NCBI GenBank assembly: GCA_034420475.1
Contig: DAOULH010000034.1
Span: 4,956-68,955 of the forward strand
Direction of reading: 5' to 3'
Length of the DNA stretch: 64,000 bases
From: Dehalococcoidia bacterium
Lineage (GTDB): Bacteria > Chloroflexota > Dehalococcoidia > Lucifugimonadales > UBA3495
Shown here one piece after another: positions 43,995-60,015 of the stretch. Position 1 is the first letter of the stretch, and the number at the start of each line of letters is the position of its first letter. A program made the translations under genes and the position numbers. The notes beneath the pieces are model-generated. The model was not told where the DNA came from. It saw only the letters and a list, made by a program, of their open reading frames with translations, and ran no database searches.

Positions 43995-44024
43995 TCCTGC
44001 TCCGGCCGCTCGTCTCCAGGCCCA

Positions 44025-45845
44025 TCAGCAAACCGGCAGATCCAGTTCGTCCAGGTCGTTCTGGTCAACGCTGAACAGCGCCGCCGGAATGCACCCGCTC
44101 AATTCGTTCCTGATGACGTACAGCAGCATCAACTCGGTCAACTCGGTCAACTCTGTCGGTATCTGGCCGGTCAATTGATTGGTATCCAGGTGCAGTTGCT
44201 CCAGTTTGGCAAGCCTGCCCAACTGCGGCGGTATGGAGCCACTCAACCGGTTGTTGTCCAGGTGCAGTTCCTCCAGATTTGCCAGGTTGCCCAACTGCGG
44301 CGGTATGGAGCCACTCAACTGGTTCCGGTTGACGTTCAATACCTTCAGCTCGGTCAGCCTTCCCAGTTGCCCGGGAATCGCTCCCTCCAGTTCATTCTCG
44401 AGAAGATACAACGATTCCAGTTTCGGGAGGCTCCCCAACTCGTCCGGTATCTGGCCGGTCAGCCGGTTGCTGTTCAAGAGCAAATGCTTCAGTTCGGTCA
44501 AATCGCCCAACTCCGTAGGGATTTCTCCGGTCAGCATATTATTGGAAAGGTTCAGCGTCTCGATTTTGGCCAGATCGCTCAGCGCCGACGGTATCTCCCC
44601 GGTCAGGTCGTTGTTGTCCAGGCGCAGATATTCCAAATTGGACAGATCTCCAAGTTGCGCCGGGATGGGTCCGCTGAGTTTGTTGTCGTACAGAGCGATC
44701 CACTCCAAGTTTGCCAGCTCGCCCAACTCGGGCGGGATCGGGCCGGTCAGTCCATTTTCGCGCAGGGTCAGTCCCCGCAGGTTGGTGAGATTGCCCAGTT
44801 CGGCCGGTAACGGGCCGGTCAGCTGGTTGCTGCGTATGCCCAAGTAGCTCAGCCTGGACAGTTTACCCAACTCAGGCGGTATGTTGCCGGTGAATTCATT
44901 CTGGCTCAGCCACAGAGCGCCGAGGTTGGAGAGACTACCCAACTCGTCCGGTAACTCGCCCGTCAGCTTGTTGCCGTCCAGATCAATGGTCCTCAGGTTG
45001 GTGAGGCCAATTATCTCGGGCGGTATTGCACCGGTCAGTTCGTTGTTCCACAACTCCAGATCGGTGAGATTGCTGAGACGACCCAACTGGGGCGGTATCG
45101 GCCCGCTGAGTCGGTTGTGATCGAATGACAGCACGGTCAAATTGGTGAGGTTGCCAATTTCCGCCGGTATCTCTCCGCTGATCCTGTTGCCATCCATATC
45201 CAGCGTGTCCAGGCTGGTCAGATTGCCCAACTCCGGCGGCAGTTGGCCGCTCAGGCCGTTGTTGTCCAGGTAGAGAACCAGAACGCAGCCGTCGCCGTCG
45301 GTGGATACGCCGAACCAGGTGCCGATGGGAGCGTCGTCACTCAACCAGTTGACGCTGTTCCTCCAGTTGGGCCCGTCGGTGGCGTTGTACAAAGCCTCCA
45401 GCGCGGCCCGGTCGCCGGCGCAGGCCGCCGGGCCTCCGCTGAGCCTGATCAGGTCCGACCATGGCGACCATTGCGGTTTCCCATAACGCTCGGCGCTGCC
45501 GCCGACGATGAACCAGTAGGCCTCCCCCGGCGTAAGGCGCGTGACGGTGTAGGAAGTCTGGCCGTTGTTGGCGATACTCACGGAAACGAACGCTTCTCGC
45601 CAGTCCCGGTTGGATGCCCTGGCCTCCGCGTAGTCTTTGGACGAAATCCAACCGATGCGGTAGAAGTTCGCCGAAGCAACGGCCGTCCAAGTGACCACCA
45701 CCTCGCCGGGGTTGGCTCCGGCAGCCACCTGGGGCTTGCCGAAGTTCGTCGGATCGCTCTGGGCCGCCACCGGCATCCCTTGCCCATTGGCAACGACCAA
45801 CAGGGCAGCCACAAAAAACGCTGCGATAGCTATGCTGATTTTCAC
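44025..45845 (-). CDS. secreted leucine-rich-repeat protein with plant-specific-type 24-residue LRRs and an N-terminal FN3-like domain
   Basis: Signal-like MKISIAIAAFFVAALLVVANG. An FN3-like segment (VVVTWTAV...YRIGW...YTVTRLTPGEAYWF). An LRRNT-like cap (DRAALEALYNATDGPNWRNSVNWLSD..IGTWFGVS). Then 17 units L..L.L..N.LSG.IP.ELG.L..L. Confidence 0.85.
   Translation of the reverse strand: MKISIAIAAFFVAALLVVANGQGMPVAAQSDPTNFGKPQVAAGANPGEVVVTWTAVASANFYRIGWISSKDYAEARASNRDWREAFVSVSIANNGQTSYTVTRLTPGEAYWFIVGGSAERYGKPQWSPWSDLIRLSGGPAACAGDRAALEALYNATDGPNWRNSVNWLSDDAPIGTWFGVSTDGDGCVLVLYLDNNGLSGQLPPELGNLTSLDTLDMDGNRISGEIPAEIGNLTNLTVLSFDHNRLSGPIPPQLGRLSNLTDLELWNNELTGAIPPEIIGLTNLRTIDLDGNKLTGELPDELGSLSNLGALWLSQNEFTGNIPPELGKLSRLSYLGIRSNQLTGPLPAELGNLTNLRGLTLRENGLTGPIPPELGELANLEWIALYDNKLSGPIPAQLGDLSNLEYLRLDNNDLTGEIPSALSDLAKIETLNLSNNMLTGEIPTELGDLTELKHLLLNSNRLTGQIPDELGSLPKLESLYLLENELEGAIPGQLGRLTELKVLNVNRNQLSGSIPPQLGNLANLEELHLDNNRLSGSIPPQLGRLAKLEQLHLDTNQLTGQIPTELTELTELMLLYVIRNELSGCIPAALFSVDQNDLDELDLPVC
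44076..45284 (-). repeat. ~17 tandem 72-bp (24-codon) LRR coding repeats
   Basis: Counted from the translated units LYLDNNGLSGQLPPELGNLTSLDT through LYVIRNELSGCIPAALF. Boundaries approximate. Confidence 0.8.
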
Positions 45846-47875: not shown

Positions 47876-48541
47876 ATGACGACCGCACCGAAACCAACCG
47901 TCGCTGCACCCACTGCGGTGCTCCCCGTGGCCGAGCCGCCCGGAACCATCCGACTGGACCTGTCCGCACTGGGCATCGACCACCGGGCGGCCAATTTCCC
48001 AGCGCGGTTCATCGAGTTCTGCGAGCGGAACAACCTTTACGAAATGGAAGTCAACGCCGCCGGGGAGCTGCTGATACTGCCTATGACTGGATTTCGCGGT
48101 AACCAGGAAGAGAATTTTGTCAATTATTTCGTGACGGACTGGCGGCTCGCCAACGGAGGCGCCTCGTCATCCCAGACCAGTCGCTTTCGTCTTCCCTCGG
48201 GAGAGTTGCGCGGACCGGACGCCGCGTGGATCACGCAGGAACGGTTGGAGGCACTGACGGAAGATGAATGGAATCGTGCAGTGGAAGGTGCGCCCGATTT
48301 CGTGGTCGAAATCCGTTCGAGGACAGACGACCTGCTTCCTCTGCAAAATAAGATGGATCTGTGGTTGACTGGTGGCGTCCGCTTAGGGTGGCTGATCGAT
48401 TCGGCAAATCGTCGCGTATACGTTTACCGTTCAGGCCAGCCAGAACCGGAAGTTCTCGAAGACCCCGAAACTCTGAGCGGCGAGGACGTGATGCCCGGCT
48501 TTTCCTTCCCGGTTCGGCAATACATCTTCGACCTGCCCTGA
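47876..48541 (+). CDS. Uma2 (DUF820) family endonuclease (fourth copy in the window)
   Basis: YEMEVNAAGELLILP...PDAAWI...APDFVVEIRSRTD...K...W...GVRLGWLID...RVYVY. Confidence 0.75.
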   Translation: MTTAPKPTVAAPTAVLPVAEPPGTIRLDLSALGIDHRAANFPARFIEFCERNNLYEMEVNAAGELLILPMTGFRGNQEENFVNYFVTDWRLANGGASSSQTSRFRLPSGELRGPDAAWITQERLEALTEDEWNRAVEGAPDFVVEIRSRTDDLLPLQNKMDLWLTGGVRLGWLIDSANRRVYVYRSGQPEPEVLEDPETLSGEDVMPGFSFPVRQYIFDLP

Positions 48542-48555
48542 TACCGTTGGCTGCG

Positions 48556-49440
48556 ATGCCCGCCCGCGTCCTCAACGGCAACGAAATCGCGGCCGGCCTC
48601 CGTGAAGAGGTTGCGGCCGGCGTGGCCGATCTGGTCGCATCCGGTAGGCCCGCACCGGGCCTGGCCGCGGTCCTCGTGGGCAATGACCCCGCTTCCGGCG
48701 TGTATGTACGGAACAAAGGCCGGGCGTGTGAGGAAGCCGGCATATTCTCCGAGATATTCTACATGCCCGCGGACGTGTCTCAGGCCAACCTCCTGAGCCT
48801 GATCGACCAGTTGAACCAGGACACCAGGTTCCACGGCATCCTGGTCCAACTCCCCCTGCCGGACGGCCTGGATGAGCCCACCGTCATCGAGCGCGTCGAC
48901 CCCGGCAAGGATGTTGACGGCCTCCATCCCCTCAGCCAGGGCCGAATGCTCCAGGGCGAGCCCGCCTACCTTCCCTGCACACCGTCGGGCGTCCAACAGG
49001 TCCTGCTGCGTTCCGGCTACGACCCTGCCGGGCAGCACGTGGTGATCGTTGGTCGCAGCAACATTGTGGGCAAGCCCCTGGCGGCCCTGCTGATGCAGCG
49101 CTCCCCCGGCGGCAACGCCACCGTCACCGTCTGCCATACGCGCACTCGCAACCTGCCTGACGTGACCCGTCAGGCCGACATCCTCGTCGCCGCCATGGGA
49201 GTTCCCGGAGCCATCGGCGCCGACATGGTGCGCGACGGCGCCGTCGTCATCGACGTGGGCATCAACCGGGTGGACGACGCCAACCGCCGCCGCGGTTACC
49301 GCCTAGTGGGCGACGTTGATTATGAGGCCGTCGCCGCCAAAGCTGAGGCCATCACTCCCGTTCCCGGCGGCATCGGCCCCATGACCATCGCCGTGCTGCT
49401 CAGCAACACGTTGCAGGCCGCCCGCAGCAGCCCGGATTGA
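48556..49440 (+). CDS. folD: bifunctional methylenetetrahydrofolate dehydrogenase/cyclohydrolase
   Basis: LAAVLVGNDPASGVYVRNK, GILVQLPLP, VVIVGRSNIVGKPLA, PVPGGIGPMTIAVLL. Internal ATG 48556 chosen as start. Confidence 0.9.
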   Translation: MPARVLNGNEIAAGLREEVAAGVADLVASGRPAPGLAAVLVGNDPASGVYVRNKGRACEEAGIFSEIFYMPADVSQANLLSLIDQLNQDTRFHGILVQLPLPDGLDEPTVIERVDPGKDVDGLHPLSQGRMLQGEPAYLPCTPSGVQQVLLRSGYDPAGQHVVIVGRSNIVGKPLAALLMQRSPGGNATVTVCHTRTRNLPDVTRQADILVAAMGVPGAIGADMVRDGAVVIDVGINRVDDANRRRGYRLVGDVDYEAVAAKAEAITPVPGGIGPMTIAVLLSNTLQAARSSPD

Positions 49441-49442
49441 CT

Positions 49443-50498
49443 ATGGAACCAGGGCGAACCGGTGACTTCGACTACGTCCTGCCCGAGGAGCGCATCGCGC
49501 AGACTCCGGCCGAACCTCGCGATTCGTCCCGGCTGCTGGTGCTGGACCGCTCCCGACCTGACGGTTCTCTGGATCACCGCAGTTTCCGTGATCTGACCGA
49601 ATACCTGCGTCCCGGCGACCTCATGGTCTTCAACCGCAGCCGGGTGATACCGGCCCGGCTCTACGGCACGGAGGCACGATCCGGCGCCCGCGTCGAGGTG
49701 CTGTTGGTCCGCCGCCAGGAACCCGGCGTCTGGCAGGCCCTGGGACGCCCCGGCCGTCGGCTCCGGGTGGGCGCCCAGGTCACGGTCGAAGCCCGCGACG
49801 GAACCGATTCGGCTCAGGTAGAAATCCTCGAGGTCCTGGAGAACGGCCTGCGCCAGGTGCGGGTCAGCGACGATTCCGCCCTGGACGGCCTGGGCGAACT
49901 GCCGCTGCCTCCCTACATCAAGGAGACGCCCGACGACCCGAACCGCTACCAGACCGTCTATGCGGACACTCCCGGCAGCGTGGCCGCCCCCACGGCAGGA
50001 CTGCACTTCACCGAGCCGCTCCTCAACTCGATCCGCTCTCACGGAGTAACCACCGCATGGGTGACCCTCCACGTCGGCCTCGATACCTTCCGACCCGTCC
50101 ACGGCGAAAACATCGCCGAGCACAAGATCCACACCGAATGGTTCGAACTGCCCCAAGAGACGGCGGCGGCGATCAACGAGACCCGGCGGCGCGGCGGCCG
50201 GATCATCGCCGTCGGCACTACCACCGTCCGCACCCTGGAGCACGTTGCGCAGGTCTGCCATTCCGAAGGAACGACGGAGATCGCTGCCTCCGTAGGCGAT
50301 GCCGACCTGTTCATCCTGCCCGGACACCCGTTCCGGTTGGTGGACGCCATGGTCACCAACTTCCACCTGCCCCGGTCCACCCTGCTGATGCTGGTGTCCG
50401 CCTTTGCGGGCCGGGAGCGCATCCTGGCCGCGTATGAAGAAGCAGTCCGCCGCAAGTACCGCTTCTACTCATTCGGCGATGCCATGCTGCTACTATAG
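49443..50498 (+). CDS. queA: S-adenosylmethionine:tRNA ribosyltransferase-isomerase
   Basis: FDYVLPEERIAQTPAEPRDSSRLLVL, AAPTAGLHFT, VGTTTVRTLE, MVTNFHLPRSTLLMLVSAF. Confidence 0.9.
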   Translation: MEPGRTGDFDYVLPEERIAQTPAEPRDSSRLLVLDRSRPDGSLDHRSFRDLTEYLRPGDLMVFNRSRVIPARLYGTEARSGARVEVLLVRRQEPGVWQALGRPGRRLRVGAQVTVEARDGTDSAQVEILEVLENGLRQVRVSDDSALDGLGELPLPPYIKETPDDPNRYQTVYADTPGSVAAPTAGLHFTEPLLNSIRSHGVTTAWVTLHVGLDTFRPVHGENIAEHKIHTEWFELPQETAAAINETRRRGGRIIAVGTTTVRTLEHVAQVCHSEGTTEIAASVGDADLFILPGHPFRLVDAMVTNFHLPRSTLLMLVSAFAGRERILAAYEEAVRRKYRFYSFGDAMLLL

Positions 50499-50650: not shown

Positions 50651-51028
50651 CTAGCAGTTGCTGTCACCGCCACCCCGCATCAGAAGACCAACTTCAGGAA
50701 TGAGTTGCTTGTTTATCGGATCAACAACAAGCAACAGAACCTCCAGTGTCGTCGCTCCCAATAAGTAAAGGTTCTCCGGGCCAAATACAACCATAGCTTC
50801 ACCGTCGATACCGTCAACTTCAACGAAGGCCATTCCCGTCTGGCGTTCCTCAATTTGGCCGTTGGCGAACCGCAGACGTCGCGTCCTGGTAGCTTCAATG
50901 CCCAACCGATGCAACAGACTGGCCGGCATCACCGAAAAGGTGGCTCCGGTATCCACAAGCGCTTCAACCGTTTCCCGGGCCGCAGAATCCGGATTGCCCA
51001 CCGTCATTTCAACGCTGAAAGTTCCCAT
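50651..51028 (-). CDS. small retropepsin-like (clan AA) aspartyl protease
   Basis: 125 aa with ALVDTGATFSVMP and LLGATTLE. Paralog of the frameshifted gene at 52799-53151. Confidence 0.7.
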   Translation of the reverse strand: MGTFSVEMTVGNPDSAARETVEALVDTGATFSVMPASLLHRLGIEATRTRRLRFANGQIEERQTGMAFVEVDGIDGEAMVVFGPENLYLLGATTLEVLLLVVDPINKQLIPEVGLLMRGGGDSNC

Positions 51029-51077
51029 GCCGATTTCCTCACGAGGTGATGATTGAGAGCGGTCAGTGTACCAGTCG

Positions 51078-52091
51078 CTACGCCATCAGCTCTGCTAGAT
51101 GAGGCTCGAACACTCGCTTGAACGCAACCAATTGTGCTTCCACCCATTCCTGCAATTCCCGTAACCGCTCCGGGTTGTCCTCGTCCAAGCTTCCCTCGCG
51201 CACTGTCAGAATGCGAGATGCTAGCCGGTTGTCTTGGCGCAACCATTCCAGCGGCCCCGCAAGTTCGCTTTCAATCAGTTCTTTTTGCTCAGCCAATTTG
51301 TCGAAGATGGCTTCGTTCTGCGTTTTGTCGTCAGAGTTGATGTAAAGTTGAACCCAGACTTTCCCAGGAAATAGGTTTAGGGATTCATCGCTGGCGCCAT
51401 AATATATGCGGTCTCGCCAAGGAGAGTCCGGGCGGAACCTTTGCCATCTCCAACGAGGATGGTTCCCGCCAGGTGTGAGTCCACTCTCTTCTAACAATCT
51501 GCTGTCCAGTTCATCGAAAAACTGTCTGCGCCGTGCCGTCGATTCGGCACTGGTTCTAGCTCGCCTGTCGCGCTGTGCACTGGCCATCCTTTTCTGCCAA
51601 TCATTAGGCATTGCCACTAATCGAAAATGAGGCGCAGGCCGTGAGTTATCAATCTTCCAAGCCTCAACCACCACACCGAAAAACGCTGTGTCTTCTCCCG
51701 TCCGCTGGTTTAACCAGTCCAACGCCTGGCGGTGCTCGTCCTGAAATTCTCGCGTCAGCCACACCACCGCGTAAGGATCGTAGCCTGCGGCGTAAGTCAG
51801 CAACTGACCCAAATGCGTGTGATTGGTGGCCTCTAGTTGGTTTTCAATAATCACTGGTCGGTCGCTGCCCCGGTCGTGGGCCAGTACGTCCAAGGAAAAC
51901 GGCCCAACAGGAGCCTCACGCTCCCGGAACTCCAAATCCAACCCTAACGCCTCTCCCAACTTGTCCAGGTTCTCCGCCAGCCACCTCGAAAAGTTATGCT
52001 CTTCGTGCGGCCAAACCGTGCGCAGGCTAACCCGCTCAATCACTCCCAAATCCACCATCGTCATGCTCCATGTCATGCTGCCGACCGTCAC
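51078..52091 (-). CDS. PD-(D/E)XK-like nuclease domain fused to a DUF4268 domain
   Basis: N-terminal FSLDVLAHD...VIIENQL...HLGQLLTYAAG (restriction-endonuclease-like core). The C-terminal half resembles DUF4268. The ATG overlaps the upstream protease stop (ATGA). Confidence 0.6.
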   Translation of the reverse strand: MTVGSMTWSMTMVDLGVIERVSLRTVWPHEEHNFSRWLAENLDKLGEALGLDLEFREREAPVGPFSLDVLAHDRGSDRPVIIENQLEATNHTHLGQLLTYAAGYDPYAVVWLTREFQDEHRQALDWLNQRTGEDTAFFGVVVEAWKIDNSRPAPHFRLVAMPNDWQKRMASAQRDRRARTSAESTARRRQFFDELDSRLLEESGLTPGGNHPRWRWQRFRPDSPWRDRIYYGASDESLNLFPGKVWVQLYINSDDKTQNEAIFDKLAEQKELIESELAGPLEWLRQDNRLASRILTVREGSLDEDNPERLRELQEWVEAQLVAFKRVFEPHLAELMA

Positions 52092-52489
52092 TCTACCGAC
52101 GGTATTCGTTCCTCAATGATAACGTCGCCGCCATCCCACCAGTCGATGCTGAGGCGGCTGCCGGCCAGCAGGTCCGTGCCGATCATAGGAGCACTATCCA
52201 TCATTGGCACCCAAACATCCACAGGCTGCCCGTGCCACAGCAGCCGCGTAGTGTATGCCGCGGTCCGGATAGTTCGCCCATCCGCCAAGGTTACGTCGCG
52301 TCTTACGTAACTCTCCAATCCCAGTGACCGGATGATTGGTTCCGGCAACGCAAGGGCACCCGTGAACCCAGTATCGACGACGACTTCCAACGCCTGAAAC
52401 GTCCAATTGGCACCGGCAATGCTAATGGAAATACGCGCTTCCAAAGCCCGGTCATCGTCTTGTCCTGGCGATACTCGCCCTCTAATCAT
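52088..52489 (-). CDS. clan AA aspartic protease (AF_0612/TIGR03698-like)
   Basis: 133 aa. VVVDTGFTGALALP, DGRTI, MIGTDLLAGSRLSID. Start ATG 52489 overlaps the upstream small gene by 8 nt. Confidence 0.65.
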   Translation of the reverse strand: MIRGRVSPGQDDDRALEARISISIAGANWTFQALEVVVDTGFTGALALPEPIIRSLGLESYVRRDVTLADGRTIRTAAYTTRLLWHGQPVDVWVPMMDSAPMIGTDLLAGSRLSIDWWDGGDVIIEERIPSVE

Positions 52490-52787
52490 TAGCACGCCCT
52501 TTTTGAGAAGCGATGTGAGCCATAGTACCCCGATAGCCAAACTTTGCGAAACTGTACTGCTCTTTGCCCACCAGTTCGGCCCAAGTGTGGGCGCCAGGGT
52601 GCCGTTCCCACAGACGCTTGGTGATTTCCATGTCGCTGCGCGGCCCCGTGTACTTGCCAACCTCGTAGTCCCCGCTATGCACGTCGATGACAACCAACTC
52701 GCCCCAGTGGTTGGCCTCCATATCCTCGCGGATGCCTTCGTAGATTTTGCGCCCGACGGCCGCGACTTGTTCACCTGTGAGTTCCAT
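52482..52787 (-). CDS. small protein partner of the clan AA protease (antitoxin-like, unknown family)
   Basis: ~101 aa MELTGEQVAAVGRKIYEGIREDMEANHWGELVVIDVHSGDYEVG.... Tightly coupled to the protease gene. Confidence 0.5.
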   Translation of the reverse strand: MELTGEQVAAVGRKIYEGIREDMEANHWGELVVIDVHSGDYEVGKYTGPRSDMEITKRLWERHPGAHTWAELVGKEQYSFAKFGYRGTMAHIASQKGRAND

Positions 52788-52798
52788 GTCATTCCTCC

Positions 52799-53151
52799 TC
52801 ACATCAACAGGTCTTCCTGCTCAATCAGCCGTTGGTCCATCGGGTCAACCACTAGCGCCAGATCCTCCAGCGTCGTCGCCCCCATCAGGTACTGACCTTC
52901 CGGACCAAATGCCACTTGCGCCACTGCATTGCGTCCCTGCACGGAAACGGAGCCCAGGCCGTTTGCAGTTCGACGCGCCGTCCATCCGCCACCTGCGCGA
53001 ACCTGGTTTCCACTGGCTCGATCCCCAATTCGTGCAACAAGCTCGCCGGCAGCATCGTGTTGGTCGCTCCCGTGTCCACCAAGGCCGAAACGGTGGCGCC
53101 CGCTTCCGCGAACAGGCTGCCTACCCATAGATCGACGCTGAAAGTTCCCAT
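52799..53151 (-). pseudogene. retropepsin-like aspartyl protease with a 1-nt frameshift near 52958-52966
   Basis: N-terminal MGTFSVDLWVG...ALVDTGATNTMLP...RRVELQTA is in the 52885 ORF frame. The C-terminal NGLGSVSVQGRNAVAQVAFGPEGQYLMGATTLEDLALVVDP... is in the 52799 ORF frame. The join falls at the caaac/gtttg run. Confidence 0.6.
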
Positions 53152-53175: not shown

Positions 53176-54279
53176 TCAATAAACCTTGTACTCCTCCAGC
53201 ACCGCCGCATCCAGGTGCAGGCCCATACCGGGCTCCGTGGGCGCGATGATTTCGCCGTTGTCCCATTCCGGCAGCACGCTGTTCAGCTGGTAGTACACCG
53301 GGTCGCGCTCCTCCTCGAACACCTCGACGAACAAGCCATGGGCGTGGGCCGGCAGCAGTTGCACCGCCAGCTGCGGCTCCTCGTGGTGCGCCATCCGGAC
53401 GCCTCGCATCTGCGCCGCGCCGGCCACCCGCTTCCATTCCGAAATCCCGCCGCAGATCGCCGCGTCGATGTTCAGGATGTCCACCGCCTCGGCGTCCATG
53501 AGTCGCTGCCCGCCCCACGAACTGCTCTCGCCCTGGCCGGCGGCCACCGGTATTCCAGTGCGCAGCCGAACCTGCCGCATGTCGTTGTCCGCGTTCTGCC
53601 ACCGGCAGGGCTCTTCCAGCCACGCCAGCCCCATCTCCTTCGCCGGGCCGGCGAACTCCAGCGCCTCCTCCAGCGTCCACGCCTGGTTCGAATCACACAC
53701 GATGATGAAATCATCGCCCAGCGTGTCCCGTATCGCCCGAACTCGGAGCAGGTCGTCCGCGACTGCGACGCCGCCCGTCTTCAGCTTCACGCCGCCGATG
53801 CCGCGCTCTCGCTGGTGCAACAGGTCCTCCACCATGTACGCGGTGTCCCGCCCCTGCACGTAGTACGCGAACCGCACTACCGGCGACCGCTCCGCATAGC
53901 CTCCCAGCAGCGTCCGCACGGGCACCCCCAGCGCCTTGCCGGCGATGTCCCACAGCGCCACGTCGATGGCGGCGACGGCCCGCATGGCGATGGCCTTGTT
54001 GCCGATGTGCGGGGTCAGCGCGAACATCTTCTGCCAGCAACGCTCGATGGCCATGGGGTCCTCGCCCTTCACGGCCTCCGCCATCGGCCCCACCACCAGG
54101 TCCTTGAGCAGTTCATACCCGGTCCGCTCGTCTCCCGAGTAGATCTCGCTCACCAACCCTTCGTCGGTGTGGACCCGAACCACGATGGTGCACCGCGATT
54201 CGATCTGGTACACGCTGCCGCTGAACCGCGTGCTCAATGGGATCCTAACGATGTCCGCTTCTACGTTGGTGATACGCAT
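53176..54279 (-). CDS. enolase-superfamily enzyme (mandelate racemase/muconate lactonizing enzyme family)
   Basis: MRITNVEADIVRIPL..., AIDVALWDIAGK, KLKTGG, IVCDSNQAW, LAWLEEP. Confidence 0.85.
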   Translation of the reverse strand: MRITNVEADIVRIPLSTRFSGSVYQIESRCTIVVRVHTDEGLVSEIYSGDERTGYELLKDLVVGPMAEAVKGEDPMAIERCWQKMFALTPHIGNKAIAMRAVAAIDVALWDIAGKALGVPVRTLLGGYAERSPVVRFAYYVQGRDTAYMVEDLLHQRERGIGGVKLKTGGVAVADDLLRVRAIRDTLGDDFIIVCDSNQAWTLEEALEFAGPAKEMGLAWLEEPCRWQNADNDMRQVRLRTGIPVAAGQGESSSWGGQRLMDAEAVDILNIDAAICGGISEWKRVAGAAQMRGVRMAHHEEPQLAVQLLPAHAHGLFVEVFEEERDPVYYQLNSVLPEWDNGEIIAPTEPGMGLHLDAAVLEEYKVY

Positions 54280-54365
54280 GAACGCGCCGCCTCCAATCAA
54301 TTCAATCCAAAACTGCGATCAATTATACGCGCCGCCACGCGGGGACCTGGTGAACTGCTCGTTCC

Positions 54366-59088: not shown

Positions 59089-59529
59089 CTACGCTGCGCG
59101 GAACATGGGCAGGCTGATGTTCTCGTCGATCTCCTCGAACACCACTTCTACGGCCATTCCGCACTGCACGGAATCCGGGCGAATCTCCCCCTCGCTAAAC
59201 TCGATACCCACCAGCCAGGTCGGTATCATTGGTCCCTCTTCCAACTCCACCACCGCCGTGATGTACGGCACCTTGTCGCGGAAGGCCGGAGTCGGCCCCC
59301 GGTGCACGATGGCGAAGGTGTGCAGGGTGCCTCGCCCGCTGGCCTGGATCCACTCGGTATCGCGGGAGAAACACTCCGGGAAGGGACAGATGTCGCGGGG
59401 GTAGAAGTAGGCCCGGTCGCACATGGCGCAGTAGCGCAGCCAGAGCTCGCCTTCCTTGCACTTTTCCCAGTAGAAGTCCGATTCCGGCTGCGGCGCGGGC
59501 AGCGGTATCTGAGGAGCGGCCTGTGTCAT
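59089..59529 (-). CDS. Zn-ribbon/OB-fold protein (DUF35 family, thiolase-associated type)
   Basis: FYWEKCKEGELWLRYCAMCDRAYFYPRDICP.C.S....W...SGRGTLHTFAIV. Confidence 0.75.
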   Translation of the reverse strand: MTQAAPQIPLPAPQPESDFYWEKCKEGELWLRYCAMCDRAYFYPRDICPFPECFSRDTEWIQASGRGTLHTFAIVHRGPTPAFRDKVPYITAVVELEEGPMIPTWLVGIEFSEGEIRPDSVQCGMAVEVVFEEIDENISLPMFRAA

Positions 59530-59724
59530 CTCGTCAATCTCCGGTGCGGAAAATAAGCCGTGTCGGCTCGCCGAGCCAACCGACGGTAAGCATAACGACG
59601 GAACGGACTGGGCGCAACCGATCCGGGCGATCTCCGCACCGTTGGCGCGCCATTTTTGCAGCGTCGTTGACCCTCAATTAACCTAAGTGTAGTGGGCGTG
59701 AGCGAGTTTTTGCTCCTCAATCAC

Positions 59725-60015
59725 TCAAAAGCGTCCTGACCAATCGGATCTTCCCGTCACGCTATCAATAACAAACTGCGGACGCCTCTCGACGGGCATA
59801 TCCGGTATGCGAAACAGCACGACGGCCGGGGGCGCTGGCAGTCCACGATCATAAATCAGCCTGCCAAAATCGCCTTTATCAAAGGTCAATAATATCCTGT
59901 CTTCAGATGCAGCGAGGGACAACACCTCAACGTCATCACTACCACGAGCGGATTCAAACACTGAGAGTACATCGTATCCGGCGTGTCACAGCAATAAAAT
60001 TGTTTCTTCTTCCAT
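59725..60015 (-). pseudogene. DUF5615 (PIN-like) toxin remnant with in-frame TGA (59988-59986) and shortened N-terminus
   Basis: Reads MEEETILLL-stop-HAGYDVLSVFESARGSDDVEVLSLAASEDRILLTFDKGDFG.... The usual LLDEN...L..L segment before (A/G)GYDV is missing. Confidence 0.55.

Follow-up and report, generated by a model that had tools for sequence, protein, structure and literature searches.

Does the group of five genes lying between queA and an enolase-superfamily (MR_MLE) gene of a Dehalococcoidia bacterium (UBA3495) encode one defense system, or several modules that share a site? The window, i.e., the whole stretch of DNA that was analyzed, comprises 64,000 nucleotides (nt) of contig DAOULH010000034.1, positions 4,956-68,955 of the forward strand. 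The listing of open reading frames (ORFs) and a reading of the sequence delimited in it an islet of five co-oriented minus-strand genes, which the initial annotation had taken for a single cassette. Our analysis points to a hypervariable hotspot that probably stacks independent, evolutionarily separable modules rather than housing one five-gene machine. The claimed system thereby resolves into real units: a nuclease, a pair consisting of a small protein (here called partner) and an aspartic protease (protT), and two solo proteases (retroA and retroB). All five minus-strand ORFs were present, at most a few bases from where they had first been placed, and the family scans confirmed their domain calls (retropepsin-like retroA and retroB, TIGR03698 for protT, and DUF4268 for the nuclease). 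The islet and its boundaries are given below in the order of transcription of the minus strand; loci from other genomes are cited by our own L numbers, and protein lengths are in amino acids (aa).

53176-54300, minus strand: MR_MLE (enolase-superfamily) gene, left boundary of the islet and outside the modules; present in 29 related loci, in nearly all of them with 92-99% identity to the window (L029, 82%).
52799-53151, minus strand: retroA, a frameshifted, solo retropepsin-like gene of the DTGA type; the N-terminal half matches Asp_protease_2 (E 2.7e-8) and the C-terminal half, in the other frame, matches the end of TIGR03698.
52945-52947, minus strand: frameshift site in retroA, a T3 run that is T4 in relatives (DNA alignment with L001, L015, L021, and L023).
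52482-52787, minus strand: partner, 101 aa, first gene of the two-gene module, with its ATG at 52787 and a GGAGG Shine-Dalgarno sequence upstream.
52088-52489, minus strand: protT, 133 aa, a TIGR03698-type (DTGF) clan AA aspartic protease whose start overlaps the partner stop by 8 nt.
51078-52058, minus strand: nuclease, 326 aa, PD-(D/E)XK-like with DUF4268, matching PDC-S11; an alternative GTG start at 52091 would give 337 aa.
50651-51028, minus strand: retroB, 125 aa, an intact, solo retropepsin-like gene of the DTGA type, with Asp_protease_2 and gag-asp_proteas above cut-off.
49437-50498, plus strand: queA, right boundary of the islet and outside the modules; 85-92% identical in relatives.

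A scan with the partner profile, covering one genome per GTDB species, gave 31 loci, all from Dehalococcoidia/SAR202-type Chloroflexota except one from Anaerolineae. In 29 of them, the partner is found just after the same MR_MLE gene, often with queA, folD, and Uma2 on the far side, and one event followed by vertical inheritance therefore accounts for most of the recurrence of the cassette. The pair was present in 29 of the 31 loci, with a tandem duplication in four; the nuclease was intact in 18, split in one, fragmentary in seven, and absent in five, and at least 12 loci combine a decayed nuclease with an intact pair. From MR_MLE to queA, the islet measured 1.7-4.2 kilobases (kb) in the relatives. 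The pair was also found off-site, without the nuclease, in L035 (same genome as L018) and in L036. Outside this clade, the proposed unit of small neutralizer, protease, and nuclease effector failed the co-occurrence test. Among 80 diverse metagenomic loci, retrieved with 15 sequences taken from a diverse alignment of the partner, the nuclease was near the pair in two, and the other 78 had no nuclease within 5 kb. Conversely, the pair was near the nuclease in none of four plasmid and in one of four chromosomal neighborhoods. The pair thus occurs without the nuclease and the nuclease without the pair, and therefore the two separate in both directions.

The divergence of the genes was then compared among the related loci. 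Identity to the window was 50-90% for the partner, 46-92% for protT, 49-82% for the nuclease, 43-91% for retroA, and 45-88% for retroB. The identities of the partner and protT were correlated (Spearman rho 0.61, p 0.001), whereas no co-evolution of the nuclease with the pair was found (rho 0.23 with the partner and 0.28 with protT, both not significant); for retroA and the partner, rho was 0.09. Recombinant combinations were observed as well: the pair of L006 is of the window's allele (90% and 92%), but its nuclease is not (59%), and in L026 the reverse holds, with the nuclease allele of the window (82%) beside another allele of the pair (62% and 56%). Alignment to L121 and L123, the nearest relatives, gave 97% identity for the flanks and about 92% for the islet other than retroA.

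The partner and its TIGR03698 protease are a real, translationally coupled two-gene module, present in several phyla. In the window, protT scores 58.6 bits against the TIGR03698 cut-off of 57.35 and carries VVVDTGFTG. The 8-nt overlap of the two genes (ATGATTAG), noted already in the initial annotation, was seen in the sequence and again at 15 of the 33 SAR202 junctions; of 66 junctions in the diverse loci, 45 overlap, 31 of them by exactly 4 nt. A protease lies directly downstream of the partner in at least 60 of the 76 testable genes from the 80 metagenomic loci; four further cases were masked by the calling of the longest ORF, and about 10 of the 76 partners are true orphans. TIGR03698 was matched by all 41 sampled partner-linked proteases, with an invariant DTG, and DTG is kept in 25 of 26 SAR202 copies of protT. 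Among the 145 top partner relatives, three are partner-protease or partner-partner-protease fusions and 21 are tandem partner-partner proteins; there was also one triple repeat. The fusions speak for a functional link of the two genes, and the tandem arrangement might reflect a protease that works as a dimer. These top relatives are our proteins P0202-P0346, e.g., P0244 (313 aa) and P0205 (259 aa). By source name, the partner family includes Chloroflexota, Planctomycetes, Poribacteria, and Entotheonellia. Translational coupling had been proposed for the small protein, the protease, and the nuclease together; it holds for the overlapping partner and protT, but not for the nuclease, which does not overlap and has its own Shine-Dalgarno sequence.

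The partner of the window belongs to no family in Pfam, NCBIfam, or PADLOC, 57 diverse relatives gave no Pfam or PADLOC family either, and the sole match to PHROGs was at 0.004. All 81 close homologues are about 100 aa in size and unnamed, and 776 relatives, mostly of about 90 aa, were retrieved when 1.84 billion cluster representatives were searched with a profile. The partner has the conserved motif HWGxLVVID-x3-GDYEVG. The AlphaFold2 (AF2) model, with a predicted local distance difference test (pLDDT) score of 77, shows a helix, a beta-hairpin, a helix, and a strand, followed by a disordered tail, and a Foldseek search with it against the PDB gave nothing below E 0.4. A suspected resemblance to DUF5678 came down to one sub-threshold match on one fusion protein and is kept as an unconfirmed lead. 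The assignment of the pair to PADLOC PDC-M08 was rejected, as only retroA matched PDC-M08B marginally (E 0.0075) and the partners matched nothing; the diverse partner-linked proteases were recognized in PADLOC by no models other than the generic 'protease' and PEPT_D.

In diverse genomes, the pair has mostly housekeeping genes as neighbors; MNT, PIN, and AIPR genes turn up here and there, a transposase once, and on a planctomycete contig the pair adjoins DUF433/PIN pairs. The same contig also carries a Uma2 gene nearby (L124:7359-8039). No relatives of the pair were found in the viral contigs of IMG/VR. In Poribacteria (L126:4267-4635), two fragments of about 57 aa follow the partner in place of an intact protease, and in another lineage an orphan partner is conserved at the same site in three assemblies (L128-L130:4001-4279); the partner can therefore outlive its protease.

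The nuclease is a full-length member of PDC-S11, a single-gene candidate of PADLOC. The model PDLC04911 matched residues 11-332 of 337 over profile positions 2-312 of 318 (E 4.3e-98), and the further PDC-S11 models PDLC04912 and PDLC04914 also matched end to end (E 3e-82 and 6e-76). DUF4268 (PF14088) was found in Pfam at residues 243-331 with 60.4 bits against a cut-off of 27 (E 2.5e-16). As the homologues are 318-326 aa long and begin with MVDLG, and as GGAG is present at 52066-52069, 7 nt upstream of the ATG at 52058, this ATG is most likely the start codon. An ATGA overlap with the protease gene had been reported; the upstream candidate start is in fact a GTG (GTGA), and the likely ATG leaves a gap of 29 nt after the protease stop. 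In relatives the gap is 13-80 nt, with a mode of 29.

An alignment of 69 nuclease homologues showed D57 and E72-N73-Q74 to be invariant. The acidic residues would fit a PD-(D/E)XK motif in which Gln takes the place of the canonical Lys. In the AF2 model (pLDDT 81.5), a low-confidence or disordered linker (residues 158-168) connects the two domains. Foldseek matched the N-terminal domain to EcoT38I (probability 0.99), SfsA (0.95), EndoMS (0.94), and CdiA-CT (0.90), and more weakly to RecE, MGME1, and Cas4, and the domain is thus predicted to have a restriction-endonuclease-like alpha/beta core. In the fold search, the DUF4268 domain resembled small chaperone-like alpha/beta folds. A sequence-profile search of the nuclease against the PDB gave nothing meaningful. 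The description of a 337-aa (now 326-aa) protein with a nuclease-like N-terminal domain and DUF4268 is upheld by the AF2 fold matches and the Pfam score, while the statement that no described system accounts for the nuclease had to be given up in view of its full-length PDC-S11 match and of the DUF4268 nucleases MdgA and MdgB, which are known to act alone. Residues 8-160 also match phrog_27742, a viral family of unknown function (E 3.9e-23), and a preprint on haloarchaeal viruses lists a DUF4268 protein among viral genes; relatives of the nuclease are therefore carried by viruses too.

Homologues of the nuclease are far more numerous than those of the partner, with 3074 against 81 close ones. 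A tblastn search found 65 plasmid records with a homologue, from Burkholderia, Rhodococcus, haloarchaea, Rhizobium, and others, and neither a protease nor a partner was detected, by annotation or by hidden Markov models (HMMs), in four plasmid neighborhoods. Four close chromosomal homologues (L131-L134) were chosen as contigs absent from the partner list. Three of them (L131, L132, and L133, among the homologues at 52-56% identity) lack the pair, and L134 has it. In L131 the nuclease stands alone, and in L133 it has transposases upstream and two solo retropepsin genes downstream. In L132:2606-3386, the homologue (55% identity) is preceded by another kind of two-gene pair, whose genes overlap and encode 106 and 157 aa; an Rx4H HEPN-like motif (RKRHQADY) is present in the second of them. 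It seems that nucleases of the PDC-S11 type land repeatedly beside small toxin-antitoxin (TA)-like pairs of different kinds.

With PDC-S11 the nuclease shares end-to-end matches to three HMMs and solitary homologues in unrelated taxa, on plasmids as well as on chromosomes; the adjoining protease genes of the window are outside the PDC-S11 definition. As support for phage resistance by PDC-S11, a haloarchaeal study offers correlation only. MdgA and MdgB are single genes with DUF4268 that were recovered by functional metagenomics as modification-dependent antiphage nucleases (Cell Host Microbe 2025, PMC12366544). E. coli carrying them is protected from T4, unless the phage lacks glucosyl-hydroxymethylcytosine, purified MdgA degrades T4 DNA, the exchange E77A abolishes its activity, and according to the authors MdgA has no homology to known defenses (PMC12366544). 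Like them, the nuclease of the window joins a nuclease domain and DUF4268 in one polypeptide; its invariant E72 compares with a catalytic Glu at about position 77 of MdgA. DUF4268 is also fused to the GmrSD Type IV restriction enzymes (PMC4619093). There, too, it is attached to the DNA-cleaving module of an enzyme directed against foreign DNA (PMC4619093), but the catalytic domains of GmrSD are DUF262/DUF1524 (HNH-type), unlike the PD-(D/E)XK-like domain predicted for the window. By analogy with MdgA, MdgB, and the GmrSD fusions, the nuclease module would most likely recognize and cut foreign, possibly modified, DNA.

The modules are probably co-transcribed in the window, since the gaps are short (24 nt from MR_MLE to retroA and 49 nt from the nuclease to retroB) and no convincing terminator was found in the islet; in scans for sigma-70 promoter and intrinsic-terminator patterns, counts were near the shuffle expectation. 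This tight, co-oriented array of partner, protease, and nuclease is also what an integrated protease-gated nuclease would predict, in which the small protein restrains the protease until a trigger frees it, the protease activates or de-represses the DUF4268 nuclease to destroy DNA, and the two solo proteases serve as accessories or in reserve. Such an array is shared by 18-19 of the 31 related genomes and by L134, the distance between the protease stop and the start of the nuclease is rather uniform (mode 29 nt), the interdomain linker modeled with low confidence might be a cleavage site, and protease-gated defense effectors occur in other systems. Even so, we regard such an integrated machine as improbable. 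All instances of the cassette are at one orthologous site in one clade and may go back to a single evolutionary event, and outside that clade pair and nuclease part company as counted above. Within it, allele identities are uncorrelated, L006 and L026 are recombinants, and the nuclease decays beside an intact pair. Moreover, the nuclease has a ribosome-binding site to itself and no overlap with the protease gene, and the PDC-S11 and MdgA-type nucleases are single-gene units.

The flanking proteases had likewise been counted as components of the cassette. They turned out to be variable and often absent or catalytically dead. Both retroA and retroB meet the Asp_protease_2 cut-off and also match gag-asp_proteas, but their TIGR03698 scores of 31-42 bits are below the cut-off and their motif is DTGA, and therefore they are not members of TIGR03698. 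Each of them is found in roughly half to two-thirds of the 31 related loci, and several copies, both retroA-like and retroB-like, no longer have the catalytic DTG. retroA and retroB are paralogues, but so diverged that their DNA matches over short stretches only, and retroB is not a recent duplicate. A frameshift in retroA had been reported and is real, consisting of one missing T, but its site is 52945-52947 (T3 instead of T4) and not the A3 run near 52962. One inserted base restores a protein of 117 aa, and intact alleles of 89-91% identity are present in L001, L015, L021, and L023; the frameshift would be due to a sequencing error in the homopolymer or to a recent pseudogenizing mutation.

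In the nearest relatives, L121 and L123, the retroA slot holds a non-alignable allele of 137 aa in which HNR replaces DTG. The loci of this swap are 52799-53135 in the window, L121:2875-3288, and L123:2382-2798, with further cases in L006, L018, L020, and L027. DNA identity falls from 97% to unalignable at the first ~17 nt of the gene (MGTFSV start) and resumes at the ribosome-binding site of the partner, and the swap looks like a cassette exchange anchored on conserved gene ends. The allele in the retroA slot of L001 reads DKG. In many relatives, the position of retroB is taken by a protein of about 345 aa without a Pfam match, followed by one or two UGSC-family genes (PF24696), as at L001:7700-9337 and L005:7700-9351 and also in L015, L019, L023, L029, and L034; in some other genomes the slot is empty. 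From these comparisons, the flanking solo retropepsins appear to be exchangeable slot-fillers and not fixed components.

The frameshifted retroA, the nuclease fragments in 7-8 relatives, and the catalytically dead protease alleles could also be read as signs that the islet is decaying junk, i.e., remnants of old insertions conserved through shared ancestry only. This we find very improbable, because the partner, protT, the nuclease, and retroB are intact ORFs with good ribosome-binding sites in the window, the catalytic residues of protT and the nuclease are invariant across relatives that are only 50-60% identical, and the pair is maintained in several phyla with its gene overlap conserved. 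The impression of the initial annotation that the islet is defense or toxin-antitoxin territory is borne out in its look by the PDC-S11 nuclease and the coupled pair. If the modules are separable, as we propose, then the nuclease, the pair, and the solo retropepsins would not need one another.

What kind of module the pair forms was considered by comparison with known systems. Both protT and the 41 sampled partner-linked proteases match TIGR03698 (the AF_0612 family) and keep its Asp-Thr-Gly-Phe motif; that family is defined by sequence only, and neither its function nor an upstream partner gene is described in the libraries and papers searched. With type II TA systems the pair shares two small genes, the smaller first, with the stop of one overlapping the start of the next, as well as several copies per genome, tandem duplication, patchy spread, rapid divergence, low GC, frequent decay, and occasional TA-gene neighbors. 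It differs from them in that the partner has no ribbon-helix-helix, helix-turn-helix, or other antitoxin fold, and the toxin-like role of protT is putative. To our knowledge, no TA toxin is an aspartic protease. RimB, APRc, and the Rlo enzymes are small, retropepsin-like, and probably dimeric, as is the protease of the pair. They belong to other sequence families, however; RimB has RimA and RimK as partners, APRc and Rlo are membrane-bound or secreted, and all are encoded in stable housekeeping contexts, unlike the pair in its hypervariable islet.

Translated together, the partner and protT most likely form a complex, in which the partner would hold the dimeric protease in check or offer itself as its substrate. 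The pair would then behave as a toxin-antitoxin or abortive-defense unit, as its architecture, copy-number dynamics, rapid divergence, and occasional TA-gene neighbors suggest. We tentatively propose, as a possibility short of our favored expectation, that it represents a new and widespread two-gene conflict class with an aspartic-protease effector and a novel-fold inhibitor of about 90-100 aa, perhaps recruited in SAR202 to govern the adjacent PDC-S11 nuclease as well. A serious, though somewhat unlikely, rival reading is that the pair is instead a housekeeping or regulatory processing unit, with the partner as a dedicated substrate, adaptor, or activator and the vicinity of a defense nuclease coincidental. 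Such a role would agree with the mostly housekeeping neighbors in diverse genomes, the partner's lack of an antitoxin-like fold, the absence of the pair from PADLOC and viral contigs, the orphan partners (about 10 of 76) that some lineages keep, and the example of RimB, a cytoplasmic retropepsin-like protease of RimABK that acts in a multi-protein unit encoded in one operon. On the other hand, the pair diverges far more than its flanks (50-90% against 85-99% identity), is tandemly duplicated, occurs in several copies per genome (L018 and L035), is frequently pseudogenized, has low GC and low GC at third codon positions (GC3), is patchily spread across phyla, and adjoins PIN, MNT, and DUF433 modules in some loci. 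Such traits are selfish or defense-like rather than those of housekeeping genes.

Several observations weigh against the reading of the islet as a stack of independent defense-related modules. The spacing of about 29 nt between the pair and the nuclease is rather constant at the SAR202 site, and every nuclease-holding locus from the partner search also holds the pair; a lineage-specific functional link between the two may therefore exist in SAR202. In L133, a solo retropepsin recurs beside the nuclease in the absence of the pair. The fold matches of the nuclease domain are modest (Foldseek E 0.007-0.09), PDC-S11 is only a bioinformatic candidate whose phage resistance is correlative at most, and MdgA may belong to another nuclease family that has only DUF4268 in common with it. 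As for the pair, neither the PDB fold search nor Pfam revealed a recognizable antitoxin or DNA-binding fold in the partner, and the two genes are absent from PADLOC and not visibly enriched in large defense islands.

The assignment of the nuclease makes it a new member of a known candidate defense family, links this family to the DUF4268 modification-dependent nucleases, and suggests an activity of PDC-S11 that can be tested. The pair of an unnamed ~100-aa protein and a TIGR03698 protease, conserved in multiple phyla, appears to be undescribed, as no account of it was found in the libraries and literature searched. If the pair is a conflict module, aspartic proteases would join the toxin and defense effectors of bacteria, and a large family of "hypothetical" proteins would gain a function. 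The site in SAR202, an abundant, uncultured marine and sponge-associated lineage, is in addition a clean natural case of cassette-like allele exchange between highly conserved flanks.

The base composition also sets the islet apart, and its A/T-richness, first judged by eye, was borne out by computation. Its GC content is 0.566, compared with a mean of 0.633 (standard deviation 0.022) for 2.5-kb stretches of the window, and it is the lowest-GC 2.5 kb within the 64 kb (bottom 0.8%). The partner, protT, the nuclease, and retroB have GC3 values of 0.57-0.68, and the N-terminal part of retroA has 0.76, lower than the 0.81-0.88 of queA, folD, MR_MLE, and mqnA. The same dip was seen at the islet in eight related genomes. 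A recent duplication or mobile-element ends were rejected as the origin of the islet, as retroA and retroB are diverged and no long direct or inverted repeats bound it. Further GC dips in the window, at 44000-45000 (0.56-0.58) and 59500-60000 (0.54), are both shorter than the islet. Three genes away from it, at 47876-48541 on the plus strand, lies a Uma2-family gene (PF05685, restriction-endonuclease-like) with a GC content of 0.592, below that of its neighbors, and this gene is conserved at that position in relatives.

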